Source of the DNA: an uncultured Coriobacteriaceae bacterium
Lineage (GTDB): Bacteria; Actinomycetota; Coriobacteriia; Coriobacteriales; QAMH01
Reading direction: 5' to 3'
Assembly (NCBI GenBank): GCA_964388185.1
Contig: CAYLYJ010000002.1
Location: 1 to 62,062 of the forward strand
DNA length: 62,062 bases
Shown here in pieces: positions 4,153 to 56,826 of the stretch. The translations under genes and the position numbers were made by a program. Each line of letters opens with the position of its first letter. Within the stretch, counting starts at the first letter, position 1. The notes under the pieces were generated by a model. That model saw only the letters and a list, made by a program, of their open reading frames with translations. It searched no databases and was not told where the DNA came from.

Positions 4153-4211
4153 ATGTGACAGGGGCCTGACCCCTGTCACATAAGGCCCCTGTCACATGAC
4201 CCCTGTCACAT
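4153..4211. repeat. REP-like palindromic element, site A. One full hairpin ATGTGACAGGGGCCTGACCCCTGTCACAT (4153-4181) plus two extra direct right-arm copies (4184-4197 and 4198-4211).
   Basis: Read directly. The 12-nt arms are perfectly complementary. The element starts 3 nt after the TAG stop at 4148-4150. Confidence 0.9.
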
Positions 4212-4325
4212 TGTGAAAACCTGCCCGTCGATTTATTCTATAATCTCCTTCAAGATGCCTTGCATCTACGACTCGAGGTATCTTGCATGCAATGATGTGA
4301 ACCCGTTCGATAGAGACTGTTTGAT

Positions 4326-5351
4326 ATGACAATTCTTGATCTCATGAGGCTCATCCAGCGCCATCTCAAGCTGGTTGTCGCGCTTCCCATTATCTTTGCT
4401 GTTGGGGCGCTCGCATATTCGTTCTTCATCCAGGCGAGCTATACGGCGACTGCCAACTTCATCACGAGCGGTGATCTTGCGTTTGCCCAGGGCCTTGCCA
4501 ACAAAGAGGCGACTTCCTATGCTAAATCGGGAGTTCAGATCTCTTGTTCGTCTCAGAGTTCGACAAAGCAGGTCACGGTGAGTGCGACCGGATCGGATGC
4601 AACGCAGTGCATCGAGGCGGCAAATACGGTTGCCGAAAACGCCGTCAACCAATATAAAAGCTCAAACAACAACGTCATTGCCACTGTGACCGAGGCCACC
4701 TCTGCGGTGCGCAACACGCCTTCTCCCCTTAGGGTTGCCGCGACGGCGTTCGCACTTGGCCTCTTCGTTGCCATCTGTATCGTCGTGCTCATCGACATCG
4801 CCAAGGCCCCCATCAAATCTCGCGAAGACGCCGAGAACGCCTGCGAGCTTCCGGTTCTTGGTACCGGCACCTCCGTAGAGGACGGCGACAGAATCCTCGC
4901 AAACCTGCAGTTCGCGTGTGGCAGGCGTCCTTCTACCATTGCCGTTGTCCCCATCGGGCAGGCAGAAAGCGCTGCCATCATCTCGCGAGAGCTTATCGGC
5001 GCTCTCGAGCGAAGCAACGTGAGGACCAAGCTCGTGAAGGGCTCGCCCCATGCTCGCAAGTTCAAGGTGACTGTGCCGGATGATGCCGCGGTCGTCGTAT
5101 GCTGCCCGCCCCTTGCCGCTGGCGCCGGGGCCTCCTACATAGCAAACAGCTCGGATGCGACAGTACTCTGCGTGACCGAGTGGACCGATTCCAAGCGTGA
5201 GCTTTTGGCGACCATGCGCGAGCTCGAGCTTGCGAAGGCCAACATCGCTGGCTTGGCGTATCTGCCCGAGAACAAGGATGCGGCTAGTGCCGCGAAGGCG
5301 GCGAAGAAAGCTGCGAAGGGCGCTCATAAGGCCAAGGGTCGTAAGGGATAA
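4326..5351 (+). CDS. Wzz/CpsC-like polysaccharide co-polymerase fused to a degenerate CpsD-like P-loop domain, with a Lys/Ala-rich tail.
   Basis: 341-aa ORF. The N-terminus (MTILDLMRLIQRHLKLVVALPIIFAVGALAYSF) is typical of chain-length determinants, and there is a second TM segment near residue 140. The C-terminal domain has GQAES where a Walker A GxGKS/T is expected. Confidence 0.6.
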   Translation: MTILDLMRLIQRHLKLVVALPIIFAVGALAYSFFIQASYTATANFITSGDLAFAQGLANKEATSYAKSGVQISCSSQSSTKQVTVSATGSDATQCIEAANTVAENAVNQYKSSNNNVIATVTEATSAVRNTPSPLRVAATAFALGLFVAICIVVLIDIAKAPIKSREDAENACELPVLGTGTSVEDGDRILANLQFACGRRPSTIAVVPIGQAESAAIISRELIGALERSNVRTKLVKGSPHARKFKVTVPDDAAVVVCCPPLAAGAGASYIANSSDATVLCVTEWTDSKRELLATMRELELAKANIAGLAYLPENKDAASAAKAAKKAAKGAHKAKGRKG

Positions 5352-5360
5352 GGAGAGGCC

Positions 5361-6356
5361 TTGACCGCCACTTCCACAGCACCGGGTTACGAGTTCTCCT
5401 CGGCCTCTGTCGATGCGGCTTGCCGCGGCCACGGTGTTGCCGTGCTCATTCCCTGCTACAACGAATCCCAGACCATCACCAGGGTGGTGGGGGACTTCAG
5501 GGCGGCGCTTCCCGATGCGGCCATCTACGTCTACGACAATAACTCCTCCGACGACACCGCCGAGCTCGCCGCTGCGGCGGGCGCCATCGTGCGTCGAGAG
5601 TCTCGTCAGGGCAAGGGCAACGTCGTGCGCTCCATGTTTCGCGATATCGATGCCGAGTACTACCTCATGGTCGATGGTGATGACACCTATCCGGCCGAGG
5701 CTGCAGCCGAGCTCCTAGCTCCCATTGCCGCCGGAGAGGCGGATATGACCGTGGGCGATCGCATCTCCAACGGTGCGTACGCCGCCGAAAACGGCCGCCG
5801 CTTTCATGGTTTCGGCAACAGTCTCGTTCGCAAACTCATCCGCGTGCTCTACGGATACTCCTTCGAGGATGTCATGACCGGTTATCGCGCTTTCTCCCGC
5901 GCGTTCGTCAAGACCATGCCCATCATGTCCGAGGGCTTTCAGGTCGAGACCGAAATATCCGTCTGGGCAGTCGACCATCGTTGGCGCGTGGTGGACGTGC
6001 CCATCGATTATCGAGACCGCCCCGAGGGTTCCGAGAGCAAGCTCTCCACCTATGCTGATGGCATGCTCGTGCTCGCTGCAATTGTGAGCCTCTTTCGCGA
6101 TTATCGTCCCATGGCCTTCTTCGGCTGGGTATCGCTTATCCTTGTCGCGCTCGGCCTCATCGCGGGCATTCCGGTGGTTGTCGAGTACTTTGACACGAGC
6201 TATGTGACCAAGCTGCCCTCAGCCGTCCTCGCCGTTGCCCTCGTGATCTGCGCTGTGCTCTCGTTTGCCGTGGGCACCATCCTCGATTCTGTTGCCAAGG
6301 CAAATCACCGTCAATGGGAGCTCGAAGTCTATCGCGTGATGGACGAAGACGATTGA
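5361..6356 (+). CDS. GT2 polyprenyl-phosphate sugar transferase (GtrB/DPM1-like) with C-terminal TM helices.
   Basis: TTG start 5 nt after AAGGAG. Motifs VLIPCYNES...YVYDNNSSDDT...MVDGDDTYP are present, and the C-terminus has two hydrophobic helices. Confidence 0.75.
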   Translation: MTATSTAPGYEFSSASVDAACRGHGVAVLIPCYNESQTITRVVGDFRAALPDAAIYVYDNNSSDDTAELAAAAGAIVRRESRQGKGNVVRSMFRDIDAEYYLMVDGDDTYPAEAAAELLAPIAAGEADMTVGDRISNGAYAAENGRRFHGFGNSLVRKLIRVLYGYSFEDVMTGYRAFSRAFVKTMPIMSEGFQVETEISVWAVDHRWRVVDVPIDYRDRPEGSESKLSTYADGMLVLAAIVSLFRDYRPMAFFGWVSLILVALGLIAGIPVVVEYFDTSYVTKLPSAVLAVALVICAVLSFAVGTILDSVAKANHRQWELEVYRVMDEDD

Positions 6357-6367
6357 CGCGGCTTGTT

Positions 6368-7882
6368 ATGACCGCAAACTCCTCCGCAAATAATCCGAAC
6401 TCCCTTGGAGGACGCGTCATTTACTGCATGGCGACGCTATGCCTCGTCGTTGCGTTTCTGCTCACCTTCATGCTTAACAGCGCGACCGGAACGCTCGAGG
6501 GGTTTCAGTTCTCGACGGAGTTCAACCACTACTTCGAAAACGATCAGTACGCGCTCTTGGCCGACGCGTTGCTCCATGGACAGCTCACTCTCGACCTGCC
6601 CGTTTCTCAAGAGCTTGCGGATTTGGCCAATCCGTACGATTACGACATGCGCGCCGCCATCGCCAGCGAGTCCGTCCCTGTCTTCTGGGACCATGCCTTC
6701 TATGAGGGGAGCTACTACTGCTATTTTGGCGTCGTACCTGCGGTTTTGCTCTACATGCCCTATCAGCTCATCACGGGTTCTTGGCTGTCCACACCCGTTG
6801 CCCTGGGCATCATTGGCGTCCTGGCCATCATCGCCATGAGTCTTCTGATTAGGCGTCTTGCGCTGCGCTACTTTGCAGGTAGCGTCACGACGCTATCGCT
6901 TCTGGCCTGCCTCTTCGTCGTCTTCAATGGCTGTAATTACATATACCTCGCCTTTGTTGCGCGCTTCTACTCCGTGCCTATCCTGAGCTCGCTGCTCTTT
7001 ACCGCCCTTGGCCTTTGGCTATGGCTCAAGGCGAGACGCGGTAACCATTCGAGCCTCTCCGTTCCCTGTCTTGCGCTCGGCTCGGCTTGCATGGCATTGA
7101 ACTTCGGCTGCCGACCGCAATTCATGCTTGCCTGTTTTCTCGCCTTTCCAATTTTCAAGGACGAGATATTCGTCTCACGACGCCTCTTCTCGAAGCAGGG
7201 CGTTTGGCAAACCGTGGCGGCGCTCCTGCCCTTTGTCATCGTGATTTCGCCTTTGCTCTGGTACAACTACGTCCGCTTTGGCTCCGTTCTTGATTTTGGG
7301 AGCAGCTACAATCTGACCGGCTTCGATATGACCGAGTATCACCAGCGCAATCTCGTGACGCTCATCATCATAGTGAAGTACCTGTTTCAGCCTCTGGCGC
7401 TCAGTTCGGCCTTCCCCTTCATTGAGCCGACGAGTATTACGTACCTTGATTTGGGATATGCGCCGCATGAGCCGTTCTTTGGCGGCATCTTCATCATGAA
7501 GCCCGTGCTCATCGTTGCATTCGCGTTTCCGTTTCTCTGGCGTTCCCTCAAAAAGAGGGGGCTTTGGGGCTTCTCGTGGCTATGCGTGCTCTTTACCGTG
7601 ATAGTGTTGTTCGCGGATACGCGGACGGCGGGCATTACCGAGCGTTACTTCAGCGATTTCGGCCTCTACATATCCCTGGTCGCCTGCTTCGTCATTCTCA
7701 CGCTGCAGATGCGAGGCATCGCAAAGCGGCCGGCCGTTCGGGTCATCTTCATAGCGCTTTTTATCTGTGCCGTTATCTTTACCCTGGTGCTGGGGACGCT
7801 CGAGCTTGTCAGTCCCTTGCGCTATGATTCCATAGCTGATAGCAATCCAGTGCTTTACGAGCAAATCGTTGCCTTCTTCTGA
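6368..7882 (+). CDS. Polytopic membrane protein. Putative GT-C type glycosyltransferase partner of the upstream GT2.
   Basis: ORF 6314..7882. The ATG at 6368 lies just past the upstream stop. More than 10 hydrophobic segments are visible. The functional call rests on gene context only. Confidence 0.45.
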   Translation: MTANSSANNPNSLGGRVIYCMATLCLVVAFLLTFMLNSATGTLEGFQFSTEFNHYFENDQYALLADALLHGQLTLDLPVSQELADLANPYDYDMRAAIASESVPVFWDHAFYEGSYYCYFGVVPAVLLYMPYQLITGSWLSTPVALGIIGVLAIIAMSLLIRRLALRYFAGSVTTLSLLACLFVVFNGCNYIYLAFVARFYSVPILSSLLFTALGLWLWLKARRGNHSSLSVPCLALGSACMALNFGCRPQFMLACFLAFPIFKDEIFVSRRLFSKQGVWQTVAALLPFVIVISPLLWYNYVRFGSVLDFGSSYNLTGFDMTEYHQRNLVTLIIIVKYLFQPLALSSAFPFIEPTSITYLDLGYAPHEPFFGGIFIMKPVLIVAFAFPFLWRSLKKRGLWGFSWLCVLFTVIVLFADTRTAGITERYFSDFGLYISLVACFVILTLQMRGIAKRPAVRVIFIALFICAVIFTLVLGTLELVSPLRYDSIADSNPVLYEQIVAFF

Positions 7883-7892
7883 GAGGACCCCC

Positions 7893-9917
7893 ATGAACAT
7901 CAAGCGTGAAATTGATCATATGAAGGCTCGCGCGGTAATGGCGTTTTCCTCGAGGCTTTCCAAGTCCGTGCGCGAGGCGATGACTTCATGCAAGGATGCC
8001 ACGGGCCTCATCGAATGTGTCGGCTTCTATGACCTGGAGAACGGCATGAGCTCCTTCAGGTTCCTCGTCGTCACGCCGAGTGATACGGAGCCCTCATTAC
8101 GGTTCTTTGACATGCGGGGAGTCGAGATACATGCGCCGATAAAGCTTCTCTCCAAAGAGCAGCTCGTAGATCAAGATGACCGTCCCGGAGCTACCGCTTA
8201 TGTCCTTGCCGCCGAGCTCCCCACGGATACGCTCGGGCTTTACGTTGCGGCAGGGGAGGGCGGCTTCCTTCGCTTTACGCCGGGGCAGCACACGCGTTTT
8301 CTGAACGAGCGCATAGCCAAGATGTGCAACCCGGGAGTCGACGGGCTCTACGGGGAGTGGATAAAGAAAGACGAGCGCCGGGACGATGCGGATGACTCGA
8401 GCGATCTGGCTCTCCGGCCGCTCATGAGCGTGATCACCCCCGTCTACAACACGCCCATCGGCTTCTTGAGCGACTTGACGGATTCCCTGAAGGCTCAGAC
8501 GTATCCCCGCTGGGAGCACATCCTCGTAAACGCAAGTCCCGACAACGAAGAGGTCTCGGCGTTCCTGCGCAGTCTGGACGATTCGCGTTTCAAGGTCATA
8601 ACTCTGGACGAGAACAAGGGCATAGCCGAGAACACCATCGCCGGAATCGAGGTGGCGAGCGGTGATTACCTCTCCTTCCTCGATCACGATGACATCGTCG
8701 ACGCCCGTATCCTGGAGGAGTACGTCCGCGCTATCAACGAGGATCCGAGCATCGACTTGCTGTACTGCGACGAGGATTCTGTATCCGAAGACGGATCATT
8801 CTTCTCGACTCCCAGATTCAAACCCGAGTTCAATATCGATTTACTCAGGTCATTTAATTACCCGCTCCACATGCTGGCGGTCAGCCGCCGCGCCTACGAG
8901 CGGGTTGAGCCCTACGGCGACGACGTGAGCGGCTCGCAGGACTACGACCTCACGCTCAAGATTGCGGAAGTCGCTGAAGGTGTTGTTCGCGTGCCCAAGG
9001 TTCTCTATCACTGGCGGGAAAATGAGGGCTCTCTCACTCACAAGGGGACGGATGAGGTCGATGTTCGGCGCTTCGATTCATCCATGTGCGCTATATGTCG
9101 CTATTACGCTTTCAGGGACATCGATGCGCAGGTAACTCCCAGTGACATTCCATGGCTTTACCGGACCGACTACGCGCCCTCGGCGGCGCGGGACGTCTCG
9201 CTCGTGGTCGTCAGCCATGACGAGGAGTCGACCCGGCGTCTCGAGGAGAGCCTGGGGGGACAGCGGACCTCCATCCTCGCGGAGAGGCTTATCGCCGGCG
9301 AAGACGACCTGGACGAGGTCATCCGCAGGGCCAAGGGCGACCACGTCATCGTGGTCGGCGACAACGTGACCTTCGAGGACGGTGTCGGCGCCCTCGGTCG
9401 CATGCGCGACGCGCTGGCACGGCCCGACCTGGGCGTCGTGTCCGCCAAGTCGGTCACCCCCGAGGGGCTCAACCTGCACGTCGGCCTCTGCGTGAAGGGC
9501 GACGGGACCATAGGCTACCTCAACCAGGGCTTCGTGCAGGGCATGGGCGGCGGGTACAACGGCTGCGCCGAGGCGCGGTGCGACTACAGCGCCGTCGACC
9601 TCTCGTGCGCGGCGTTTCGCAGGGCCGACTTCGAGGCGGCTGGTGGTCTTTCCGGGGAGTACGACACGCCGCTGGCCCGTGCCGTCGACTTCTCGTTCAG
9701 GATGCGCGACCTGGGAAAGCTCGTCATGGTCGATCCGGATGCGCGCGTCGTCGCGCGGGCCGGCCTGGAGCAGCTGCTGCTCGGGTACTCGCATCTGTCG
9801 GACCGGCCGCAAGACGTGGCGAGGCTCTGGTCGCGCTGGGGAGAGGAGTACAGGACCGACGTCCTCGCCAATCCCAACTACACGCTCGACAACTCGTACT
9901 TCAATTTGAAAATGTGA
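7893..9917 (+). CDS. Glycosyltransferase with a GT2 domain and a second degenerate GT2-like domain. Copy 1 of a tandem pair.
   Basis: The ATG at 7893 follows GAGAGGA and the upstream stop. Motifs MSVITPVYNTP...AQTYPRWEHILVNASPD...FLDHDD are present. The stop TGA at 9915-9917 lies inside palindromic element B. Confidence 0.8.
   Translation: MNIKREIDHMKARAVMAFSSRLSKSVREAMTSCKDATGLIECVGFYDLENGMSSFRFLVVTPSDTEPSLRFFDMRGVEIHAPIKLLSKEQLVDQDDRPGATAYVLAAELPTDTLGLYVAAGEGGFLRFTPGQHTRFLNERIAKMCNPGVDGLYGEWIKKDERRDDADDSSDLALRPLMSVITPVYNTPIGFLSDLTDSLKAQTYPRWEHILVNASPDNEEVSAFLRSLDDSRFKVITLDENKGIAENTIAGIEVASGDYLSFLDHDDIVDARILEEYVRAINEDPSIDLLYCDEDSVSEDGSFFSTPRFKPEFNIDLLRSFNYPLHMLAVSRRAYERVEPYGDDVSGSQDYDLTLKIAEVAEGVVRVPKVLYHWRENEGSLTHKGTDEVDVRRFDSSMCAICRYYAFRDIDAQVTPSDIPWLYRTDYAPSAARDVSLVVVSHDEESTRRLEESLGGQRTSILAERLIAGEDDLDEVIRRAKGDHVIVVGDNVTFEDGVGALGRMRDALARPDLGVVSAKSVTPEGLNLHVGLCVKGDGTIGYLNQGFVQGMGGGYNGCAEARCDYSAVDLSCAAFRRADFEAAGGLSGEYDTPLARAVDFSFRMRDLGKLVMVDPDARVVARAGLEQLLLGYSHLSDRPQDVARLWSRWGEEYRTDVLANPNYTLDNSYFNLKM
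8304..9909 (+). repeat. Left copy of a 1606-bp apparently perfect direct repeat (partner at 10438-12043, offset 2134 bp).
   Basis: The encoded proteins and all overlapping six-frame ORFs are identical, for example 8662..8928 vs 10796..11062 and 9142..9369 vs 11276..11503. Several 60-nt lines were spot-checked by eye. Confidence 0.85.
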
Positions 9918-9940
9918 CAGGGGCCAGGCCCCCGTCACAT
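9912..9940. repeat. REP-like palindromic element, site B (ATGTGACAGGGGCCAGGCCCCCGTCACAT).
   Basis: Read directly. There is one A/C mismatch in the stem. The element overlaps the stop codon of the upstream glycosyltransferase. Confidence 0.85.
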
Positions 9941-10029
9941 CCCGGCGGGATAAAGATACAGCCTGTTATACTCTCGTAATCGGGCGAAGGGCTCGGAAAT
10001 TATATGCTGAAGTATCATTTGGATAGGAT

Positions 10030-12057
10030 ATGGACGTCAAACGCGAAATAGCGTACCTGAGGGCATGCGGATTCATGAGGGCCTTCGGGCGTCGGTCCGC
10101 TGACGTGGGAGACGCGAGGGCCTCCTGCGTCGGTTCGCGCGGCCTGCTCGAGCTTATCGGCATCTACGACCTGGAGGACGACACGAGTTCGTTCCGCTTT
10201 CTCGTCGTCATGCCGAGCGATGCCGAGCCGTCACTGCGCGTCTTCGATGCTCTCGGTCACGAGCTGCGTCCCGAGGTGAGCCTCCTCTCGCGTGAGGCCA
10301 TAGGAGGAAGGGGGGATGCCCGGTCTGCCGCCTACGTTCTTGCGGCCAGGCTTCCCACGAACACCCTGGGATTGTTCGCCGCCGTGCCGGGCGCCGGCTT
10401 CCTTCGCTTCACGCCCGGCATGCACAGGAGGATGCTCAACGAGCGCATAGCCAAGATGTGCAACCCGGGAGTCGACGGGCTCTACGGGGAGTGGATAAAG
10501 AAAGACGAGCGCCGGGACGATGCGGATGACTCGAGCGATCTGGCTCTCCGGCCGCTCATGAGCGTGATCACCCCCGTCTACAACACGCCCATCGGCTTCT
10601 TGAGCGACTTGACGGATTCCCTGAAGGCTCAGACGTATCCCCGCTGGGAGCACATCCTCGTAAACGCAAGTCCCGACAACGAAGAGGTCTCGGCGTTCCT
10701 GCGCAGTCTGGACGATTCGCGTTTCAAGGTCATAACTCTGGACGAGAACAAGGGCATAGCCGAGAACACCATCGCCGGAATCGAGGTGGCGAGCGGTGAT
10801 TACCTCTCCTTCCTCGATCACGATGACATCGTCGACGCCCGTATCCTGGAGGAGTACGTCCGCGCTATCAACGAGGATCCGAGCATCGACTTGCTGTACT
10901 GCGACGAGGATTCTGTATCCGAAGACGGATCATTCTTCTCGACTCCCAGATTCAAACCCGAGTTCAATATCGATTTACTCAGGTCATTTAATTACCCGCT
11001 CCACATGCTGGCGGTCAGCCGCCGCGCCTACGAGCGGGTTGAGCCCTACGGCGACGACGTGAGCGGCTCGCAGGACTACGACCTCACGCTCAAGATTGCG
11101 GAAGTCGCTGAAGGTGTTGTTCGCGTGCCCAAGGTTCTCTATCACTGGCGGGAAAATGAGGGCTCTCTCACTCACAAGGGGACGGATGAGGTCGATGTTC
11201 GGCGCTTCGATTCATCCATGTGCGCTATATGTCGCTATTACGCTTTCAGGGACATCGATGCGCAGGTAACTCCCAGTGACATTCCATGGCTTTACCGGAC
11301 CGACTACGCGCCCTCGGCGGCGCGGGACGTCTCGCTCGTGGTCGTCAGCCATGACGAGGAGTCGACCCGGCGTCTCGAGGAGAGCCTGGGGGGACAGCGG
11401 ACCTCCATCCTCGCGGAGAGGCTTATCGCCGGCGAAGACGACCTGGACGAGGTCATCCGCAGGGCCAAGGGCGACCACGTCATCGTGGTCGGCGACAACG
11501 TGACCTTCGAGGACGGTGTCGGCGCCCTCGGTCGCATGCGCGACGCGCTGGCACGGCCCGACCTGGGCGTCGTGTCCGCCAAGTCGGTCACCCCCGAGGG
11601 GCTCAACCTGCACGTCGGCCTCTGCGTGAAGGGCGACGGGACCATAGGCTACCTCAACCAGGGCTTCGTGCAGGGCATGGGCGGCGGGTACAACGGCTGC
11701 GCCGAGGCGCGGTGCGACTACAGCGCCGTCGACCTCTCGTGCGCGGCGTTTCGCAGGGCCGACTTCGAGGCGGCTGGTGGTCTTTCCGGGGAGTACGACA
11801 CGCCGCTGGCCCGTGCCGTCGACTTCTCGTTCAGGATGCGCGACCTGGGAAAGCTCGTCATGGTCGATCCGGATGCGCGCGTCGTCGCGCGGGCCGGCCT
11901 GGAGCAGCTGCTGCTCGGGTACTCGCATCTGTCGGACCGGCCGCAAGACGTGGCGAGGCTCTGGTCGCGCTGGGGAGAGGAGTACAGGACCGACGTCCTC
12001 GCCAATCCCAACTACACGCTCGACAACTCGTACTTCAATTTGAGGTTTGGGGAGTAA
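10030..12057 (+). CDS. Glycosyltransferase (GT2 plus degenerate GT2-like domain). Copy 2 of the tandem pair, with a divergent N-terminal ~135 aa.
   Basis: 675-aa ORF. It is identical to copy 1 from NERIAKMCNPG to YFNL. The N-terminus MDVKREIAYLRA parallels MNIKREIDHMKA of copy 1. Confidence 0.8.
   Translation: MDVKREIAYLRACGFMRAFGRRSADVGDARASCVGSRGLLELIGIYDLEDDTSSFRFLVVMPSDAEPSLRVFDALGHELRPEVSLLSREAIGGRGDARSAAYVLAARLPTNTLGLFAAVPGAGFLRFTPGMHRRMLNERIAKMCNPGVDGLYGEWIKKDERRDDADDSSDLALRPLMSVITPVYNTPIGFLSDLTDSLKAQTYPRWEHILVNASPDNEEVSAFLRSLDDSRFKVITLDENKGIAENTIAGIEVASGDYLSFLDHDDIVDARILEEYVRAINEDPSIDLLYCDEDSVSEDGSFFSTPRFKPEFNIDLLRSFNYPLHMLAVSRRAYERVEPYGDDVSGSQDYDLTLKIAEVAEGVVRVPKVLYHWRENEGSLTHKGTDEVDVRRFDSSMCAICRYYAFRDIDAQVTPSDIPWLYRTDYAPSAARDVSLVVVSHDEESTRRLEESLGGQRTSILAERLIAGEDDLDEVIRRAKGDHVIVVGDNVTFEDGVGALGRMRDALARPDLGVVSAKSVTPEGLNLHVGLCVKGDGTIGYLNQGFVQGMGGGYNGCAEARCDYSAVDLSCAAFRRADFEAAGGLSGEYDTPLARAVDFSFRMRDLGKLVMVDPDARVVARAGLEQLLLGYSHLSDRPQDVARLWSRWGEEYRTDVLANPNYTLDNSYFNLRFGE
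10438..12043 (+). repeat. Right copy of the 1606-bp direct repeat.
   Basis: Same evidence as for 8304-9909. Confidence 0.85.
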
Positions 12058-15170: not shown

Positions 15171-15567
15171 GTCCCTACATCCCGTACCATCCGACGCCCT
15201 CGCCCTTCCAGCCTATCGCGACGAGCCTGTTGTGCTCGGCGAGGTCCTTGGTGTAGTTGTGGCTCCCGGAGTTGTTGCGCGGCGCGCTCGGATTGACGTT
15301 GGGGTTGAACTGGCGGTACAGCGGCACGCGCTTGCCGTCGTCGGAGTACCAGCCGATCCCCTCGTACCTCCAGCCCACGCGCACGAGGTTGTCGCGCTCG
15401 GAGGCGTCCATCGTGTAGTGGTGGTCGGTTCCCGAGTACAGGCGGTACACCGGGGTCTTGGAGGTCTTCGGCGCCGTCCACCCCACGCCCTCGTAGGCCC
15501 AGCCCACGCGTTTTAGGTTGTCGCGCTCGGAGGCGTCGGCGGTGTAGAAGTGCTCGCCGCTGTTGGG
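15171..15567. repeat. 397-bp segment identical to 21514-21910. It encodes the C-terminal anchor cassette.
   Basis: The terminal ~130 aa of the two proteins are identical, and so are the overlapping alternative-frame ORFs (15130..15516 vs 21425..21859). The first mismatches are at 15170/21513 and 15568/21911. Confidence 0.85.
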
Positions 15568-18500
15568 ATTATACAGGCGGTACATCTCTCGGCCGTCCGG
15601 ATTCGTTGCGCCCGACTTCGCGATCGAGAAGGTTTGCTTCAGGGATCCCGTGTAGTTGCCCCTGCCGATGACGGTTGCGCTCGCCGTGCCGACGTTCACG
15701 TTGTTGGAGTACTGGACGGTGTAGTCCTTCTCCTTCGTGAGCGTCCCGTGCCCGGGCATCGTGACGGTGGGATTGGGCGTGATCGCGCTGCCGGTGTACG
15801 TCTGGGACGGGATCTTGACCGTCGCGCCGCTGAGAGATACGGGCTTGATGGCATACCAGATGCGTACGTAGTTTCCGCTGCTGTGGTAGTTGCCTAAACC
15901 GACGACATCCGCGCGGGCGCTGTCTGTGCCGGCGTTTACGTTGTTCCAGAAGTTGACGATACGATAGTCCGTCCCTTCTTTGAGAACCTTGTTGCCATCG
16001 CGCACGGTGATGTTGGGCTTGAGCTCATGTCCCGTGTAGGTGGGGGCATCATTGATGGTGATCATGGAGCGTGTGATGGGATTGACGATATCGAATTCCG
16101 CGTTCTTGAAGCCGGAGTAATTTCCATCGTTCTTGGCGGTGATGACGGCCGTGGCAGTGCCGGGATTGGTGTTGTTGCGGTAGATGATGTCGTAATCAGT
16201 ACCCTCTTTGAGCGTGATGGAGTTAACTATGACCGTTGCCTTGGGCTTGAGCTCTTTACCCGTGTAACGTTGGGGGGCGATTGTCACGGTGGCGGTCTGC
16301 AGCTCGAGCTTGCTGATGGTGAAGTTGCACCTGCCCCATTCGGTCGCGCCCTCGAAATTACCCTTTCCGACGACGCGTATCTGGGCGGCGTTGCCCGCGT
16401 TCTTGTTGTTCTGGTATTCGTACGTGAAGTCCTTGTTCTCGGACAGGACGCCGAAATCACCGAGCGAAACGGCGGGTTTGGGAGTGATCACGTTTCCGTT
16501 GTATGGGTAGCTGCCGACGGTTCCGAATGTTGCGGTGGAGATGCTCGCCGGATTGATGGTAAAGGTTTTCGTGATCGTGCCGGAGCACTTGCCCGCGCCC
16601 TTGATGATGACGGTGGCGGTACCGGCATTGACGTTATCTTTGTAGCTGACCGTATAGTCGCTTCCCTTCGTGAGCGTCGTGCTGCCGTAGACTACCGTCG
16701 GGGTAGGCGATATGGCCTTGCCCGTATATGTGTAGCTGTTGTCGATTTTGCTTACGCTCGCAGAGCTGATATCGAGTCCGGTAACCGTGACGCTCTTGCT
16801 CAGCGTGATACCCGTATCCGCATTGCCATCGGCATCTTTGAGCGTGGCGGTGATGGTCGCCGTGCCTGGCTCCTTGCCCACGAACGAGACACCCATGTTG
16901 TCTCCGCTATCCGTGACGGTCATCTCGATGATGTTGGACTTATCGACGCTCCATGACCAATCGGAGGGGGAGCCCCCATCGCCCCATGCCGTACCATCGC
17001 CGTACAGCATCTTGACGCTGCCGTTTTCGCTGCGCTGAATCGTGTCGTCTCCTACGAGTGATGCACTCGTGACCTGAAGAGCATGGTAGGCATCGATCTC
17101 ACCGTAGCCGGTTTCGCGATCCCAGCCCGCGGCGTCTATGTCGGTGGCTGTCGCTTCGATGATGTCCGCGACCTGGCTTGCGTTGAGCTTGGGGTTTTCG
17201 GAGAAGATGAGGGCCGCGATGCCGGCGACGCAAGGAGCGGCCATGGAGGTACCGGTCGCGTTCGCAACATTACTTGTATTTGATAGGGAGAGAATACTGG
17301 TACCTGGGGCGCTAATGTTCTTGACATGCTTGTCGTCAACGTTGTAGTTGGAACTTGCATCGCGTGCGACACTGTTATTGGATGTCGTCCAATTGTCAGT
17401 CTTCTTGAGGTTGATAACTGATATGCCATTGGCGAAATCACCGGGATTGCTTATATAGGGACCATCAATGGGGTTGTTTCCGGCGGCAGTTACAGTGAGA
17501 ATACTCGGAAAGCGGGTCGTGATGTTTTCGCCATTTGTGTACGAGCCCTGTCGAGCTGAATCTATGCAGGACATGAGCACCTCGTCTTCTGTTGTCAGAG
17601 TTTCTTGTTTGGCGCCCAGGCTCATGTTTATGACACGCACGTTATAGAACTCGGCGTTACTCTTTGCTCCAGCAACGCCTTCGTGTGCGCTGAAGAGCCA
17701 ATTGTATGCATTGGCGATATCAGCGGTGTCAAAGAAGTGACCTGGATTACCCTCCTGATCCTCCCCGAAATAGCTTGCCTTGATGATGACGAGGCCGGCA
17801 TTGTAGGAGACGCCTGCGACATATTGGCCATTATTGGCTTCGGCTGACACGATGCCGGCAACATGGGTTCCATGCCCGCTTTCATCATCGACGTCATCTT
17901 CTCGCCCAAGGTTCTTCTTTGTCGCAGAGTTGTAGTGGGCGACGACATTGTTCTTCAAGTCTGGATGATTAATTTGAGCACCCGTGTCGATGACGGCGAC
18001 CGAAACGCGATTGCCGCCCTTGTCACCGCACTTCTCGATTCCCCATGCGTTGTATGCATTGACTGAGTCAAGCGCCCATTGTTGCACGCTTTGCGGATCG
18101 TTAATGCTCACCGCTGCCTGTGGTGTCACTGCGCCGTCGGCGTTTGTGGAAGCGGGCTGCACGGCAGATACGCTATTTGCGCTGCCGCTGTTTTCGGCAA
18201 GCTGGTAGACGAAGTTGGGTTGTGCCTTGAGGCCCGAGAGCTTGAGCGTCGTAACGGAGTCCTTCACGTCCGCGCCATCGGCGAGCTCGATGCTGACGTA
18301 GCCGGCGCTCAGGTCCTGGTCGGAGACGTCTCTCGTGGCCGCGAAGTCGCATGAGGCAAGTACCTTGTTAATGCTGTCGGCGCTCGTACCCGGCTCGATG
18401 CTGAGCAGCACCTCGTCGTGGACGTAGCCGAGTTCGACATCGAGGGCCACGTCCCTGTTGGTGTCTGTAGCGGTGTCCGGGGACTGTTCGGTTGCAGAGT

Positions 18501-18681
18501 CGTTCGCATCGGTGGAGACGGTAGCGTCACCGGGGGAGTCTGGACGAGGGGCCGGTCCTTGCGCGAGGAAGAATCCGCCGACAACGAGGGCAAAGGCCGC
18601 CACGAGGCATGCGGATACAACTGCGCGCATGCGACCGCGTGAATGCCTTTTTGTTTCGTTGCTATGTGCTCCGTTTTTCAT
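15175..18681 (-). CDS. Secreted S8 subtilisin-like serine protease with multiple Ig-like repeats and a C-terminal triple wall-binding-type repeat.
   Basis: 1168-aa ORF. Catalytic triad contexts are VAVIDTGAQINHPDL, HGTHVAGIVSAEANNG and GTSMAAPCVAGIAALIF. The N-terminus has a TM/signal segment. Confidence 0.85.
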   Translation of the reverse strand: MKNGAHSNETKRHSRGRMRAVVSACLVAAFALVVGGFFLAQGPAPRPDSPGDATVSTDANDSATEQSPDTATDTNRDVALDVELGYVHDEVLLSIEPGTSADSINKVLASCDFAATRDVSDQDLSAGYVSIELADGADVKDSVTTLKLSGLKAQPNFVYQLAENSGSANSVSAVQPASTNADGAVTPQAAVSINDPQSVQQWALDSVNAYNAWGIEKCGDKGGNRVSVAVIDTGAQINHPDLKNNVVAHYNSATKKNLGREDDVDDESGHGTHVAGIVSAEANNGQYVAGVSYNAGLVIIKASYFGEDQEGNPGHFFDTADIANAYNWLFSAHEGVAGAKSNAEFYNVRVINMSLGAKQETLTTEDEVLMSCIDSARQGSYTNGENITTRFPSILTVTAAGNNPIDGPYISNPGDFANGISVINLKKTDNWTTSNNSVARDASSNYNVDDKHVKNISAPGTSILSLSNTSNVANATGTSMAAPCVAGIAALIFSENPKLNASQVADIIEATATDIDAAGWDRETGYGEIDAYHALQVTSASLVGDDTIQRSENGSVKMLYGDGTAWGDGGSPSDWSWSVDKSNIIEMTVTDSGDNMGVSFVGKEPGTATITATLKDADGNADTGITLSKSVTVTGLDISSASVSKIDNSYTYTGKAISPTPTVVYGSTTLTKGSDYTVSYKDNVNAGTATVIIKGAGKCSGTITKTFTINPASISTATFGTVGSYPYNGNVITPKPAVSLGDFGVLSENKDFTYEYQNNKNAGNAAQIRVVGKGNFEGATEWGRCNFTISKLELQTATVTIAPQRYTGKELKPKATVIVNSITLKEGTDYDIIYRNNTNPGTATAVITAKNDGNYSGFKNAEFDIVNPITRSMITINDAPTYTGHELKPNITVRDGNKVLKEGTDYRIVNFWNNVNAGTDSARADVVGLGNYHSSGNYVRIWYAIKPVSLSGATVKIPSQTYTGSAITPNPTVTMPGHGTLTKEKDYTVQYSNNVNVGTASATVIGRGNYTGSLKQTFSIAKSGATNPDGREMYRLYNPNSGEHFYTADASERDNLKRVGWAYEGVGWTAPKTSKTPVYRLYSGTDHHYTMDASERDNLVRVGWRYEGIGWYSDDGKRVPLYRQFNPNVNPSAPRNNSGSHNYTKDLAEHNRLVAIGWKGEGVGWYGM

Positions 18682-18824: not shown

Positions 18825-18863
18825 AATGTGACGGATGTGACAGGGGCCTGGCCCCTGTCACAT
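18825..18863. repeat. REP-like palindromic element, site C. Full hairpin ATGTGACAGGGGCCTGGCCCCTGTCACAT (18835-18863) preceded by a partial left arm AATGTGACGG (18825-18834).
   Basis: Read directly. It lies 16 nt downstream of the stop of the minus-strand subtilase 18880..21372. Confidence 0.85.
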
Positions 18864-18879: not shown

Positions 18880-21372
18880 TTAGCGCATGCCGTACCAGGC
18901 GTAGCCTTCGTACCTCCAGCCGACTCGAACGAGTCTCTCGCGCTCGGAGGCGTCCGTGGTGTAGTGGTGACTACCGGAGTTGTTGCGCGGCGCCTGAGGG
19001 TCTACGTTGGGATTGAACAGACGGTGCAGGGCAACGCCTTTGGCGTCATCGGAATACCAGCCGATGCCCTCGTACTTCCATCCCACGCGCACGAGATTGT
19101 CACGCTCGGAGGCGTCCGTGGTGTAGTGATGGTCGGTACCCGAGTATAGGCGATAGACCGGCGTGTTGGATTTTGCCGGTGCGGTCCAACCCTCTCCTTC
19201 GTACTTCCAGCCTGCGCGACTGACCCTGTCTCGTTCGGTGGCATCCGCGGTGTAAAAGTGTTCGCCTGAATTGGGGTTGTAGAGGCGATACATGACTTTG
19301 CTCGTGGGCTGCGCGATGTTGACGGTGGCTCGGGCGCTAATGCTCGGGTTGGAGTCGAGCCGTGCGGTAATAGTGACCTGACCGGCAGCTTTGGCAGTGA
19401 GCTTGCCCGTTTCGGTAATCGTGGCGTCGATCTTGTTTGAGCTGACCTCGAAGGTCCAATTGCCATCGATGCTGCTCTCGACCTTGTATTGTGCCGTATC
19501 GTTTGCCGTCAATGACGAGGGTCCGCTTACCTTGCCGTCATATACCGTGATGGTTTTCTTGAGCGTCTGCCCATTCGCGCTAACGCTGATGGTCGTGTAG
19601 CCGGGTTTGACTCCGCGAACGACGCCGCTAGAGTTCACGGAGGCCACACTGGGATTACTCGAGCTCCATGTACCCGCACCGGGGCATTTGAGGTTCGTCG
19701 TCGTACCGGCGAGAAGCGAATCAGGACCCGCGATAGCCGCCTTGCTCTTGGCGAGGTTAACGGCATTGAGCGCATTGATCTTGCCATAACCGTACAGGTT
19801 GTCGAAACCCTGTGCGCCGATGTCATCCGCTGCCGAGAACAGGATGCTTTTGAGCTCTTTGGCGGTCAAATTGGGGTTGGCGGCAAACGCAAGTGCGACG
19901 ACGCCTGTCACGCACGGTGCGGCCATGGAGGTGCCACTCTTGATGTCATATCCGCCACCGGCCATTGTGGTGAGGATACTTGTCCCAGGAGCCGAGAGCT
20001 GCTTGGTCATGCGGCCGCTTACGTTGTAGTTCGAATCCGATTCGCGCGTGAGATCCTGCTTGATGTTGATGACACCGATGATATTGTCCGAGAAATCGCA
20101 GGGAAAGCAACGATAGGGGAGGTTGCCGTCGCGATTGCCGGCAGCGCTCACGGTCAGAAGGTCATGCTCGTTGTACGCCTCGTCGATGACGCGCATGATG
20201 GCTGCGTCGTTTTCTCCTAGCTCACCCGTGCGCTTGCTGCCGAGGCTCATGTTGATGACGCGGATCTTCTCGCCCGTGGAGTAATTGACGGTCTTATTGG
20301 CGATGATGTTCCTGTATGCCTTGATGATATCGGTTGACTGTGCCACGAAATCACCGTTTTGCTTGTGAAGGGCGCGCACGATGTAGAGTCCCGCGTTGTA
20401 CGAGATGCCGGCAACGCCTATGCCGTTATTGGCTTCGGCGGCGATGATGCCGGCAACGGGTGTACCGTGGTTTTGCTCATCGGCGACGGCCGATCCGCCC
20501 GTGATCGTGTCATAGGTACCGACGATGTTGTTCCTCAAATCGGGATGGTTGACGTTGCAACCCGAATCGATGACCGCGACGCTCACACGGCGTGTTGCAC
20601 CAGCGCTGGGGCGACATTTCGCGATGCTCCAGGCGTCGCGCGCCTGAATTGCCTGCAATCCCCATTGCTGGCCCGATAGGGGGTCGTTGACGGATGTTGC
20701 CTGTGCGACGAGGGGAGAGTCCGCCTCATCTGTGTTGCCCTGGGGGTCAGGTGCGATGTCTTCACTCGCAGAGGCATCGGAGTTTGGGGGCGCAGCGGTA
20801 AGGCCAGCCTCGTCATCTATTGTCGGGGACTGGGTGCCCTCGACCTCGTCAAGATCGAGCGCGTAGTACTTGAAGTTGGGCTGGGCGGTGAGGCCCTGTG
20901 CTTGCAGCTGATCGGCAACCTCTCCCGCGCTTGCCGCACCCTCGTAGGTGAGCGTCACGAAACCGCATGCAGCATCATCTGCGTTGATTGACGCATTGCC
21001 CGCAAAGCCAAGGGCGCCGAGCGCTGCCCGCGCGGATTCAACATCCTGTTCATCGTCAATCGAGATGACGACCGTGTTCGGCACGTATTCGTCTTGGGGA
21101 ACAGATGCGTAGACAGCAGTGGGGGTCGTTGCATCTTCGCCGGAATAGGGCTTGCCTTCGGTGGAGTTGCCTGTCGTAGCATCGGATTCTACAGAAGCAG
21201 AGCTCGAAGCAGGGGTAGCTTCATCGGGCGGAGTGCCTTGCGATACGTTGGTACTCAAGATGCCAATGCAGAAAACGAGCGCCACAACGCTTGTGAGGCA
21301 TGCCGAAATTGCCAGGCGAGCACGCATGGCTGTGCTTTTCTTTGTGTGCTTGGTGTGAGCTCCTCGTTTCAT
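18880..21372 (-). CDS. Secreted S8 subtilisin-like serine protease with Big_2-like domains and a C-terminal triple wall-binding-type repeat.
   Basis: 830-aa ORF. Catalytic triad contexts are VAVIDSGCNVNHPDL, HGTPVAGIIAAEANNG and GTSMAAPCVTGVVALAF. Confidence 0.85.
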   Translation of the reverse strand: MKRGAHTKHTKKSTAMRARLAISACLTSVVALVFCIGILSTNVSQGTPPDEATPASSSASVESDATTGNSTEGKPYSGEDATTPTAVYASVPQDEYVPNTVVISIDDEQDVESARAALGALGFAGNASINADDAACGFVTLTYEGAASAGEVADQLQAQGLTAQPNFKYYALDLDEVEGTQSPTIDDEAGLTAAPPNSDASASEDIAPDPQGNTDEADSPLVAQATSVNDPLSGQQWGLQAIQARDAWSIAKCRPSAGATRRVSVAVIDSGCNVNHPDLRNNIVGTYDTITGGSAVADEQNHGTPVAGIIAAEANNGIGVAGISYNAGLYIVRALHKQNGDFVAQSTDIIKAYRNIIANKTVNYSTGEKIRVINMSLGSKRTGELGENDAAIMRVIDEAYNEHDLLTVSAAGNRDGNLPYRCFPCDFSDNIIGVINIKQDLTRESDSNYNVSGRMTKQLSAPGTSILTTMAGGGYDIKSGTSMAAPCVTGVVALAFAANPNLTAKELKSILFSAADDIGAQGFDNLYGYGKINALNAVNLAKSKAAIAGPDSLLAGTTTNLKCPGAGTWSSSNPSVASVNSSGVVRGVKPGYTTISVSANGQTLKKTITVYDGKVSGPSSLTANDTAQYKVESSIDGNWTFEVSSNKIDATITETGKLTAKAAGQVTITARLDSNPSISARATVNIAQPTSKVMYRLYNPNSGEHFYTADATERDRVSRAGWKYEGEGWTAPAKSNTPVYRLYSGTDHHYTTDASERDNLVRVGWKYEGIGWYSDDAKGVALHRLFNPNVDPQAPRNNSGSHHYTTDASERERLVRVGWRYEGYAWYGMR

Positions 21373-51582: not shown

Positions 51583-52488
51583 ATGAAGATCCTCGTGACC
51601 GGTGAGCGCGGACAGCTCGGAAACGAGCTGAGGCGCTGTTTCGATACCATGCAGGCCGAGATTGGCCCCATTCCCGACCTGTACAGGGACGCCGAAGTCG
51701 ATTACATCGATTATCAGGTGCTCGACATCAGCGATGCATGTGCTGTAGATGCGTGGTTTGCCGAGCATGGCCCCTATGATCTCACGATTAACTGTGCGGC
51801 CATCACCAACGTGGACGGCTGCGAGCAAAACGAGGCGGGCGCACTGCACGTCAATGCTGTCGGTGCCGAGAACATGGCCCGCGCTGTTCGGGATTGCGGT
51901 GGCAAAATCGTTCATATTTCCACTGACTACGTTTTTCCGGGCACTAATCCCGTGCCTCGTGTCGAGACCGACGCGATCGCTCCCATCTCTGCGTATGGGC
52001 GTACCAAGTGGGAGGGTGAGGTGCTTACGAGCGCTGCATGCGAGAAGAGCTTCGTCGTGCGTACGGCATGGCTTTATGGCTACATCGGCAAGAACTTCGT
52101 CAAGACCATGCTGCGTCTGGCACGCGAGAATGGCAAGATTTCCGTCGTCAATGACCAGATGGGCAATCCGACGAGCGCCAACGACCTTGCCTACGAGATT
52201 CTCAAGATCGCGGCAACCGATAACTACGGCACGTATCACTGCACCAACAACGGTACGTGCAGCTGGTTCGATTTCGCCTGCGCCATTGTGGACGCAGCAG
52301 GCATCGAATGCGAGAAGGAGGGGCTGAGCTCCGCCGAGTACAAGGAACGCTTTCCGCAAAGTGCCGATCGTCCGGCTTATTCGAGCTTGGAGAACGCGCA
52401 TCTGGCGGCTACCATCGGAGACGAGATGCGTCCCTGGCAAGACGCGCTTGCGACGTATATGGACAAGTTTGAGGAATTGGCAGACTAA
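51583..52488 (+). CDS. rmlD: dTDP-4-dehydrorhamnose reductase.
   Basis: 301-aa ORF starting MKILVTGERGQLG, with STDYVF and YGRTK. Confidence 0.9.
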   Translation: MKILVTGERGQLGNELRRCFDTMQAEIGPIPDLYRDAEVDYIDYQVLDISDACAVDAWFAEHGPYDLTINCAAITNVDGCEQNEAGALHVNAVGAENMARAVRDCGGKIVHISTDYVFPGTNPVPRVETDAIAPISAYGRTKWEGEVLTSAACEKSFVVRTAWLYGYIGKNFVKTMLRLARENGKISVVNDQMGNPTSANDLAYEILKIAATDNYGTYHCTNNGTCSWFDFACAIVDAAGIECEKEGLSSAEYKERFPQSADRPAYSSLENAHLAATIGDEMRPWQDALATYMDKFEELAD

Positions 52489-52675: not shown

Positions 52676-53242
52676 ATGACAGCTGACAGAGTCATTACGA
52701 GTGGCAACTTCACCTTCACGCAGACCTCCATCGAGGGTGTCATCATCGTGGATGTGAAGGCATATGGCGATGATCGCGGCTACTTCATGGAGACGTACAA
52801 GCGCCCCGATTTCGTGGCAGGCGGCATCGACGTTGATTTCGTGCAGGACAATCAGAGTTCGTCCACCAAGGGCGTACTGCGTGGCCTGCATTTTCAGATT
52901 GAGCACCCCCAAAGCAAACTCGTGCGCGTCGTGAGCGGAGAGGTTTTCGACGTGTGCGTTGACCTGCGTGAGGGAAGTCCCACCTATGGCAAATGGGAAG
53001 GCGTCGTGCTCTCTGCCGAGAACAAGCGTCAGTTCTTCGTGCCGCGTGGCTTTGCGCATGGCTTTCTCGTGCTCTCGGATACGGCGGAGTTCTGCTATAA
53101 ATGCGATGATGTATACCATCCCAACGACGAGGGCGGCTACATGTACAATGACCCGGCTTTCGGCATCGAATGGCCGCAGGTTGACTGCGAAATCAACCTG
53201 AGCGAGAAGGACCGCAAGCATCCCGCGTTCAAGCGCGACTAG
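52676..53242 (+). CDS. rmlC: dTDP-4-dehydrorhamnose 3,5-epimerase.
   Basis: 188-aa ORF containing DDRGYFMETY, RGLHFQ and FVPRGFAHGF. Confidence 0.95.
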   Translation: MTADRVITSGNFTFTQTSIEGVIIVDVKAYGDDRGYFMETYKRPDFVAGGIDVDFVQDNQSSSTKGVLRGLHFQIEHPQSKLVRVVSGEVFDVCVDLREGSPTYGKWEGVVLSAENKRQFFVPRGFAHGFLVLSDTAEFCYKCDDVYHPNDEGGYMYNDPAFGIEWPQVDCEINLSEKDRKHPAFKRD

Positions 53243-56037: not shown

Positions 56038-56061
56038 GAAACAGCGGCAAGGGATAGGGTC

Positions 56062-56724
56062 ATGCACCGTAAACGCGTGCTATACATACAGGAGGGCATG
56101 CAGACCTACGGGCGCCTTGCGCGCCTGACCGCCGAGCTTGATGCTGATTTCGAGCTGTGTGCCGCAGGGGCGGCTGCTTCCTCGGTTCCATCGGCCGACC
56201 TTGTCGTCTGTGCGCTGGCAGACCTGCGTCATGATGGTCTTGCCGAGCTCGAACAGCGGTTGCGCGCGGCCGAAAACGTTGCGCTGCTGCTCGTGGTTGA
56301 AGCCGAAACGCTCCAGACCCTGCGTTTGCCTGTCCATATTCGTGCTGATTTTGTTCTGTCAACCTCTCCGGATGCAGAACTGCTCATTCGCATGCGGCGG
56401 TTACTGTGGCCGGGGGAGGAGACGGCAAACTCTGATTTCATCACGGTCGATTCGATGGTCATCAACCTCTCGACCTATCAGGTGCTTGTCGACGGAAGTC
56501 CTGTGGACTTCACCTATCTCGAATATGCGCTCCTCGCGTTTCTCGTCACGCACTCCGGTCACGTTTATTCGCGCGACGCTTTGCTCTCGCGCGTTTGGGG
56601 TTTCGATTACTTCGGGGGCTCGCGCACTGTTGACGTACATGTGCGACGCGTGCGCTCCAAGCTTGGCAATGATCTTGCCTCGCATCTACGGACCGTTCGC
56701 GGCGTCGGCTACATGTGGGAGTAG
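56062..56724 (+). CDS. OmpR/PhoB-family winged-helix regulator with a degenerate (pseudo-)receiver domain.
   Basis: 220-aa ORF. The C-terminal Trans_reg_C pattern is LEYALLAFLV...SRDALLSRVWG...RTVDVHVRRVRSKL...TVRGVGY. The receiver lacks the phospho-acceptor Asp and the conserved Thr and Lys when aligned by hand to OmpR. Confidence 0.7.
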   Translation: MHRKRVLYIQEGMQTYGRLARLTAELDADFELCAAGAAASSVPSADLVVCALADLRHDGLAELEQRLRAAENVALLLVVEAETLQTLRLPVHIRADFVLSTSPDAELLIRMRRLLWPGEETANSDFITVDSMVINLSTYQVLVDGSPVDFTYLEYALLAFLVTHSGHVYSRDALLSRVWGFDYFGGSRTVDVHVRRVRSKLGNDLASHLRTVRGVGYMWE

Positions 56725-56766
56725 ACGGGCAGTCCCATACGGTGGGCTTGCCTTCGCACCCGACTC

Positions 56767-56826
56767 TGTGTCAGGGGTCAGGCCCCTGTCACATGCGATG
56801 TGACAGGGGCCTGACCCCTGACACAT
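56767..56826. repeat. REP-like palindromic pair, site F. F1 (56767-56794) and F2 (56798-56825) are exact reverse complements and together form a 59-nt palindrome.
   Basis: Read directly. It lies between the convergent regulator (stop at 56724) and vsr (stop at 56893). Confidence 0.9.

Follow-up and report, generated by a model that had tools for sequence, protein, structure and literature searches.

The 62,062-nucleotide (nt) stretch of DNA analysed here, below called the window, is a complete NCBI contig (CAYLYJ010000002.1) from an uncultured Coriobacteriaceae bacterium, and it contains a family of short palindromes at the ends of genes. The consensus unit is 29 nt long, ATGTGACAGGGG-YCWGR-CCCCTGTCACAT, and is on balance probably a copy-and-paste element of the kind represented by repetitive extragenic palindromes (REPs) and by REP doublets forming hairpins (REPINs), with a hairpin that caps or ends transcripts. 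This reading is founded on the discrete boundaries of the unit, its gain and loss among strains, its local duplication in both direct and inverted orientation, and rearrangements that start precisely at its edges. When the same sequence of 27–29 nt stands after unrelated genes in several genera, it cannot have been reached repeatedly by point mutation, and from this follows that it must be copied. The placement of the copies and the stability of their hairpins suit, furthermore, a hairpin that protects transcripts at the 3' end or terminates them.

When the window is scanned with the pattern TGTGACRGGGG-N5-CCCCYGTCACA and at most two mismatches are allowed, nine full copies are found, with matches starting at positions 4154, 9913, 18836, 21396, 21452, 32919, 32970, 56767, and 56799. 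At the same settings, the 29-nt pattern gives no match in 100 dinucleotide-preserving shuffles. The 12-nt arm, with at most one mismatch, occurs 19 times where 0.32 matches are expected, and all 19 lie within six sites, here called A to F. With two mismatches, two further and more diverged arms appear in sites D (21468) and F (56766), together with three matches outside the sites (13626, 34748, and 40631), the chance expectation at that setting being 4.3. The initial annotation had proposed a palindrome family at six loci, and this is confirmed: nine full copies and additional half arms lie at exactly these sites. The recurrence could in principle be due to chance or artefact, i.e., to assembly, to adapter-like sequence or to independent GC-rich hairpins retrieved by a very large search, and a 596-Gb search with one 11-bp stem could indeed yield a few unrelated hairpins, perhaps those in Streptomyces and Microthrix. 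This is highly improbable as a general explanation, since nine copies occur in 62 kb where none is expected, since the same sites, with single-nucleotide differences, occur in independent ENA, Logan, and NCBI assemblies, and since the loops are consistent, YCWGR in Coriobacteriia and mostly ACNGT in Clostridia, in a way that is not given by chance. For the copies in these two classes, chance and artefact are effectively refuted.

At all six sites the palindromes are situated 2–67 nt from a stop codon or overlap it, as had been annotated. At site A, a full palindrome (4153..4181, loop CCTGA; the full palindromes have no assigned strand) begins 2 nt after the TAG (4148-4150) of a DUF5648 open reading frame (ORF), 3788..4150, and is followed on the plus strand by two additional right arms CCCCTGTCACAT at 4186-4197 and 4200-4211 (span 4186..4211), which form a direct array of the slippage type. 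Site B consists of one palindrome (9912..9940, loop CCAGG, one A/C arm mismatch), and the TGA within its ATGTGA is the stop codon of the family 2 glycosyltransferase (GT2) ORF 7869..9917. At site C, a partial left arm ATGTGACGG (18825..18833, plus strand) precedes a palindrome that is perfect as 14+1+14 (18835..18863, loop CCTGG) and lies 16 nt after the stop of the subtilase/DUF5648 gene 18880..21372(-). The start of the same gene is 22 nt from the first palindrome of site D, D1 (21395..21423, loop TCAGG, one G/T arm difference), which lies upstream of it; D2 (21451..21479, loop CCTGA, one arm mismatch) is inverted with respect to D1, and an additional right arm CCCCCGTCACAT (21487..21498, plus strand) is found 19 nt after the stop of the DUF5648 gene 21518..25162(-). 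Site D also holds an arm fragment.

Site E contains two palindromes, of which E1 (32918..32946, loop TCAGG) lies 2 nt after the stop of the CotH/DUF5648 gene 30108..32915 and is followed by TTTTATTTTT, and E2 (32969..32997, loop CCTGA) is its exact inverted partner. E2 is read through by the flippase ORF 32948..34273(-), the last 16 codons of which (NVTGVRPLSHGVDQQK) are made up of E2 and the spacer; homologues of the flippase end in unrelated C-terminal tails. This corrects the initial annotation in one point, E2 being not strictly extragenic. At site F, F1 (56766..56794, loop TCAGG) lies 42 nt after the stop of a response-regulator gene and F2 (56798..56826, loop CCTGA) is 67 nt past the stop of vsr, 56893..57435(-), which is convergent. 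The doublets at D, E, and F are all inverted, with 25, 22, and 3 nt between the arms, respectively; at E the arms are 29 nt and 100% complementary, and at F they are 28 nt. The annotated inverted doublets at E and F, mixed cluster at D, and right-arm array at A are thus all borne out when the sites are read.

To see how far the palindrome extends beyond the window, consider a scan with the exact pattern of one genome per species in 185,579 species, in which only 25 stretches matched, and a scan of metagenomes restricted to YCWGR loops, in which 31 stretches did, most of them with 57–64% GC. Six Coriobacteriia metagenome-assembled genomes (MAGs) in the first scan carry one or two exact copies each, and together with the metagenome stretches they represent about 15 different Coriobacteriia contexts, so that the motif has a distribution wider than the window. 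A sister form, TGTGACAGGGGAC-N-GTCCCCTGTCACA (…GGGGAC-N-GTCCCC…), is present in several rumen and gut Clostridia MAGs, and a few matches in Streptomyces and Microthrix, with unrelated loops, may be due to chance. The loops of the Coriobacteriia copies are all YCWGR and those of the Clostridia copies mostly ACNGT. None of the loci from the two scans is homologous to the window, and when all copies are aligned the similarity ends at a unit of 29–32 nt, in about 20 unrelated contexts and several genera. Flank conservation is limited to an A at −1 and a T at +1, both of which are parts of the palindrome, and the flanks are otherwise unrelated.

Outside the window, most copies are separated from a stop codon by 2–20 nt, and they often lie where two genes converge. 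Their neighbours are genes for ABC transporters, an MFS transporter, a TetR regulator, a ferredoxin-domain protein, and the 3' end of a tRNA; other copies follow surface-protein and toxin-antitoxin genes, and in the guaA context the palindrome is upstream of the gene. In Clostridia the neighbours encode cyclophilin, LeuA, and glycogen phosphorylase. The Clostridia loci (L006, L009, L013, L016, L021, L024, and L025) have identical 11-nt arms placed 2–22 nt past housekeeping genes and mostly flanked by A/T-tracts, and in L009/L021 three copies of the sister form occur on one contig, one of them with two compensatory arm changes (GATGACA...TGTCATC). The palindrome had no match in viral, phage, and plasmid collections, which leaves an origin from phages or plasmids unsupported.

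Strains of the same species, compared at 93–98% identity, differ in the number and orientation of copies. At site F, strains L029 and L032 have a single copy, F1 being the one absent, the window and most strains have the inverted pair, and L031 has a direct pair. Site B has one palindrome in the window, whereas L071 has a cluster of two there, with three partial arms. At site C, the partial left arm of the window is missing in L071 and L072, which have an additional right arm instead. L071 also carries a further copy, which the window lacks; it lies where the orthologue of 15175..18681 has its 3' end, and borders a replaced gene module. In three loci from related species (70–88% identity), neither a copy nor a half arm is present in 21 kb of homologous locus, and in L069 and L070 the intergenic region between CotH and flippase genes that is orthologous to the one with E1 and E2 contains no copy. 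Polymorphism, in presence as well as in copy number, is found between strains and between species.

Rearrangements at the edges of the palindrome are most easily followed in 11 contigs with a conserved gene for an LPXTG-like surface protein of 427 amino acids (aa), which is followed by the palindrome 9–22 nt on. To the right of the palindrome four different junctions occur, and three of them truncate a downstream CBS-domain gene in nested fashion, starting 0–2 nt from the right edge of the palindrome; at the far side of these deletions there is no second palindrome. The left side shows at least four junctions, and in one of them the final codons of the gene are lost and the TGA of the palindrome serves as its stop. 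The recurrent 427-aa neighbour was considered as an IS110-type or other transposase and rejected, since no Pfam domain is found in it and its appearance is that of a surface protein anchored by sortase. Of seven contigs compared at another orthologous position, 3 nt past an ABC-2 gene stop, one (L037) has a degenerate copy, and its sequence past this copy is unlike that of the other contigs. Within the window, homology between the tandem GT2 paralogues 7869..9917 and 10030..12057 stops at 9909, 3 nt before site B, the palindrome of which substitutes the native RFGE-stop of 7869..9917. The native 3' codons of the flippase have likewise given way to the palindrome, and homology of the flippase with other species stops 30 nt from E2. 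Breakpoints are not always at copies: a strain-variable boundary at 46878 has no palindrome.

Single copies are predicted to fold with about −23 to −34 kcal/mol and doublets with −62 to −73 kcal/mol, the latter as one hairpin of about 28 bp, and the folding energies are 3–12 standard deviations below those of shuffled sequence. Among 36 distinct copies, changes on both sides occur at seven of 14 symmetric positions, e.g., from A-T to G-C at 8/22 and among C-G, T-A, and T-G at 13/17, with a covariation score that is reached by none of 500 shuffles, where it should be kept in mind that the pattern used for collection fixes most arm positions and leaves 8/22 and the five central bases free to vary. 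In five of six doublets each convergent transcript meets the GGGGUCAGGCCCC orientation first, so that the closing pair is U-G and not C-A, a weak trend that is consistent with a role at the RNA level. The loop variants CCWGG, TCWGG/CCWGA, and TCWGA are related by C-to-T transitions at the first C of GGCC, and could reflect cytosine deamination, either in a methylated (5-methylcytosine) loop or in a single-stranded one. Rfam gave no match at gathering score, and in its E-value mode the doublets D and E had only below-threshold matches to miRNA precursors. GTGACA hexamers as promoter elements were rejected, because no usable −10 element is found at the right spacing.

Several observations, given in this and the following two paragraphs, weigh against a REP/REPIN-like mobile element. 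Sites D and E, and the presence of site C, are stably inherited among strains, with variation only by transitions in the loop (CCTGA/CCTGG and TCAGG/TTAGG). Sites C and D and the additional site of L071 share flanks with paralogous DUF5648 3' modules, from which follows that part of the spread is due to segmental duplication or gene conversion; some of the spread within the window accompanies duplicated modules of this kind rather than independent insertion. A T-tract, defined as at least five T in the 8 nt after the stem on either side, is present at E1 and E2 but in only nine of 50 high-GC contexts. The first two of these observations are what one would expect if the palindrome were an ordinary and immobile bidirectional terminator or 3' stabilizer, and if its look of a family came from duplicated gene ends and from horizontal transfer of whole genes. 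Like Rho-independent terminators, it is a GC-rich stem placed after stop codons and often between convergent genes, E1, E2, and most Clostridia copies are flanked by A-tracts and T-tracts, and further genes, both of the window and of L083, come with unrelated terminator hairpins of their own. We consider this explanation fairly unlikely, however, because stems of terminators normally drift under selection that acts on structure alone, whereas here the sequence itself, 27–29 identical nt, is kept after about 20 unrelated genes with dissimilar flanks and across phyla. Most Coriobacteriia copies, moreover, have no U-tract, the window copies within 1-20000 were not called in a terminator scan, and neither polymorphism in copy number and orientation nor edge-precise rearrangement is a property of terminators.

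The symmetry of the palindrome extends down to a 1-nt centre, with C14 and G16 kept in 31 of the 36 copies. As this pair cannot be used by the hairpin, its maintenance points, besides selection for the hairpin, either to recognition of the duplex or to template switching that corrects the palindrome. It also bears on the possibility that the palindrome is the recognition site of a dimeric DNA-binding protein or of a single tyrosine recombinase of the Xer type, and delimits exchangeable modules in a hypervariable envelope locus, as pdif modules do on Acinetobacter plasmids. Xer/dif-like and pdif sites are 28–29 nt long, with inverted arms of 11 nt and a short asymmetric centre, and the palindrome, with its two 11-nt inverted arms around an asymmetric centre of 5–7 nt, can be written as 11+7+11 = 29 nt, with a conserved C-N-G core on which a hairpin could not select and with an arm sequence that is kept across two phyla. 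Breakpoints of synteny and of module exchange lie at or near palindromes, a toxin-antitoxin cassette (BrnT/BrnA) lies between copies in one contig (L048), and an unrelated inverting segment suggests that site-specific recombination is active in the locus. But the breakpoints are at the outer edges of the palindrome and not at its centre, the far-side endpoints of the deletions have no second site, and the doublets, 3–25 nt apart, are too close for synapsis. No recombinase gene is present in the window or recurs beside copies, double changes that preserve the complementarity of the arms are unexpected of a protein half-site, and most copies are solitary and follow housekeeping genes. A recombinase or regulator site is for these reasons improbable.

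A copy-and-paste mechanism would need an enzyme acting in trans, and none was found. A phmmer search for RAYT (REP-associated tyrosine transposase) and IS200 proteins in 852 kb of copy-bearing loci, with YafM and IS200 TnpA as queries, gave nothing, which is a weak test. In the window, Pfam scans revealed no Y1/RAYT, IS200, or other transposase, in agreement with the initial annotation, and among 126 neighbouring ORFs no transposase or recombinase family is recurrent. The aligned copies are not flanked by target-site duplications, and neither an asymmetric head nor an insertion target is conserved among them. Species-representative genomes have few exact copies (1–3), and a 10-kb housekeeping stretch (L083), from the sample of strain L026 and probably of the same species, has none and carries an ordinary terminator after clpC; L083 was the sole useful locus from a search for DUF5648 homologues that returned mostly fragments. 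Given these low numbers, the window has the look of a local hotspot and not of a sample from a swarm that covers the genome. In REP systems, a conserved asymmetric tetranucleotide head (GTAG or CGTC) at the foot of the hairpin is the signal for cleavage by RAYT. Such systems are further characterized by one RAYT gene per genome, which codes for a Y1 HUH transposase and is typically bordered by repeats, and by tens to hundreds of scattered copies. With no GTAG-type head, no RAYT in the window or in the 852 kb of copy-bearing loci, and no high copy number in evidence, membership in the REP-RAYT system is not supported. The lack of a RAYT signature could point to a different mobilizing enzyme, and a speculative variant, to which we assign a low probability, is that the palindrome is the substrate of a non-RAYT nuclease or transposase, specific for structure or sequence and common to gut Coriobacteriia and Clostridia, which cuts at the edges, copies the unit to gene ends, and drives one-ended deletions and cassette exchange as a recombination-hotspot system that diversifies envelope loci.

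The likeness to REP elements and to bacterial interspersed mosaic elements (BIMEs) proposed in the initial annotation is therefore retained in part: the palindromes are dispersed and discrete, stand at 3' ends, and occur as singlets, doublets, and partial arrays, but a GTAG/CGTC-type head, and a RAYT in 852 kb of related sequence, are lacking. Shared with REPs and REPINs (Bertels & Rainey 2011, PMC3116915; PMC3337134; PMC5581495) are the short palindromes of 20–40 nt at gene ends, the singlets, the REPIN-like inverted doublets that fold into one long hairpin (present also in L048 and L071), the BIME-like mixed clusters, the identical cores with unrelated flanks, the copy number that varies by strain, and a likely role as hairpin or terminator at the 3' end of mRNA. 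Discrete boundaries, gain and loss at the strain level, local duplication, and edge-precise rearrangement are all traits of REPs and REPINs (PMC3116915, PMC3337134). The palindrome differs from them in being near-perfect down to its centre, in a copy number that appears low outside the locus, and in its host, an actinobacterium (Coriobacteriales), with the same arms in Clostridia. Work on REPINs concentrates on Proteobacteria, with some RAYT groups reported from Clostridia and other classes (PMC5581495), and in the literature searched we found no REP/RAYT report for Actinobacteria or Coriobacteriia. The arm TGTGACAGGGG matched only unrelated eukaryotic primers in that literature and is not found there as a bacterial element, in line with the annotation, which knew of no described element of this sequence.

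Other known systems fit less well. The palindrome shares with the dRS3 repeats and intergenic mosaic elements (NIMEs) of Neisseria a short inverted-repeat unit, intergenic clusters near surface-protein genes, rearrangement breakpoints, and variable cassettes. The dRS3 unit has the form 6-N8-6 and occurs in hundreds of copies per genome; it borders RS units and is targeted by an IS110-like phage integrase. None of these features is seen for the palindrome. Integron attC sites were rejected, since the unit is 29 nt (attC, 57–141) and has no GTTRRRY core, the flanking genes are on both strands, and there is no integrase. A miniature inverted-repeat transposable element derived from an insertion sequence (IS) was rejected for want of flanking direct repeats and of a parent IS in copy-bearing loci, and the target hairpin of a diversity-generating retroelement was rejected because there is no reverse transcriptase and the genes are unrelated.

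Returning to the REP/REPIN-like reading, we infer a sequence of events as follows. The 29-nt unit would be copied whole into the short non-coding stretch just past a gene, at times with loss of the final codons and with a new stop provided by the unit. Once resident, the palindrome would duplicate locally, in direct or inverted orientation, and half arms would be shed or gained through slippage promoted by the hairpin. It would also stimulate deletions and module exchange that start at its own edges. In the transcript the hairpin would be very stable, with 12–14 bp for a single copy and about 28 bp for an inverted doublet, and would most likely block 3' exonucleases, and end transcription where a run of U follows. 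A family of this kind would span gut Coriobacteriia and have a sister form in Clostridia.

If so, a REP-like family exists in uncultured gut Coriobacteriales, while REPs and REPINs have been studied mainly in Proteobacteria, and the identical arms in Clostridia hint at a common mechanism or at transfer across phyla. Such a family would help explain the strong strain variation of loci for envelope glycans and surface proteins. If the palindrome is only a terminator or stabilizer, it is an ordinary feature. In practice, it breaks metagenome assemblies (two contigs end inside copies, L079 in E1 and L035 in F), it gives spurious or altered ORF ends, with stops that it supplies and a C-terminal tail that it encodes, and it is a possible marker for strain typing. 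Several contigs (L076–L082) begin inside the DUF5648 gene adjoining site D, and either palindromes or repeated DUF5648 modules appear to break assemblies.

Some of the contigs outside the window have further features beside the palindrome. In L048, a BrnT/BrnA toxin-antitoxin pair occupies 1133-1971, between an inverted doublet and, 3 nt past the stop of brnA, a single palindrome; the gene flanked by copies was considered as a RAYT, and this was rejected when the genes turned out to be BrnT/BrnA. Another dispersed motif, about 30 nt long (GGGACAAATGACCTGTCCCCTTGTCCCAC), occurs in Coriobacteriia contigs (L037 ~1601-1636, L053 4236-4270, L051 6678-6712, and L007 4925-4952), in two cases at most 20 nt from the palindrome, and in L066 and L051 the palindrome has related CCTGTCCC strings in its flanks. 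In L051, an unrelated hairpin with a stem of about 28 bp adjoins it.

The window itself encodes a cell-envelope locus with Wzz, many GT2/GT4 glycosyltransferases, a WsaF-like enzyme, LicD, a Wzx-type flippase, and the rml genes for dTDP-rhamnose, together with at least ten secreted enzymes that bear DUF5648 (subtilases, amidase, glucosaminidase, CotH, and YkuD). The closest named relatives of its proteins are from uncultured Coriobacteriales/Coriobacteriaceae MAGs, Raoultibacter, Adlercreutzia, and Olsenella. Pfam finds no transposase, integrase, or Y1 enzyme among its genes, and the window has no tRNA gene. Large inversions between opposite copies as the origin of the minus-strand block 12097-25162 were rejected, because no copies lie at its ends. 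In the related species represented by L067 (11292-21260, compared with 15175-30096 in the window), the orthologous subtilase, glucosaminidase, and YkuD have choline-binding repeats and not DUF5648, and it looks, from this comparison, like a wall-anchoring module swapped wholesale across the locus.

The tandem GT2 paralogues 7869..9917 and 10030..12057 share 90% identity overall, with virtually no differences over residues ~150-680. They diverge in their N-termini and final four codons, the native end having been replaced by site B; in L071 a single copy is present. Just upstream of site A, a large gene for an M6-peptidase-like surface protein, 124..3987 / 3788..4150, appears split: 124..3987 contains a partial DUF5648 (profile positions 42-85), and the overlapping ORF 3788..4150, in another frame, covers positions 31-133, an arrangement best described as a putative frameshift or partial domain duplication. 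The gene convergent to site F encodes Vsr, a T/G mismatch endonuclease, and no methyltransferase gene is seen adjoining it; the centre of the palindrome reads CCWGG/GGCC.

Some genes have terminator hairpins of their own that are unrelated to the palindrome, e.g., at 50584-50617. After polA, at 60062-60130, there is an inverted repeat with 20-nt arms (GGGGGGTGACA / TGTCACCCCCCC) that hold the GTGACA and the G-run of the family in reversed order, and which is probably a terminator unrelated to the family. Between the rmlD-like gene 51583..52488 and the rmlC-like gene 52676..53242, finally, a segment of about 140 nt (52503-52641) is bounded by inverted repeats of about 19 nt (AGAGAGGGGGACGTTTTGC / GCAAAACGCCTTCCTCTCT), also unrelated to the palindrome. 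It has the window orientation in L026, L028, L030, and L035 and is reversed, at about 90% identity, in L027, L029, L031, L032, and L034, which makes it a candidate for an invertible, phase-variable switch upstream of rhamnose genes.

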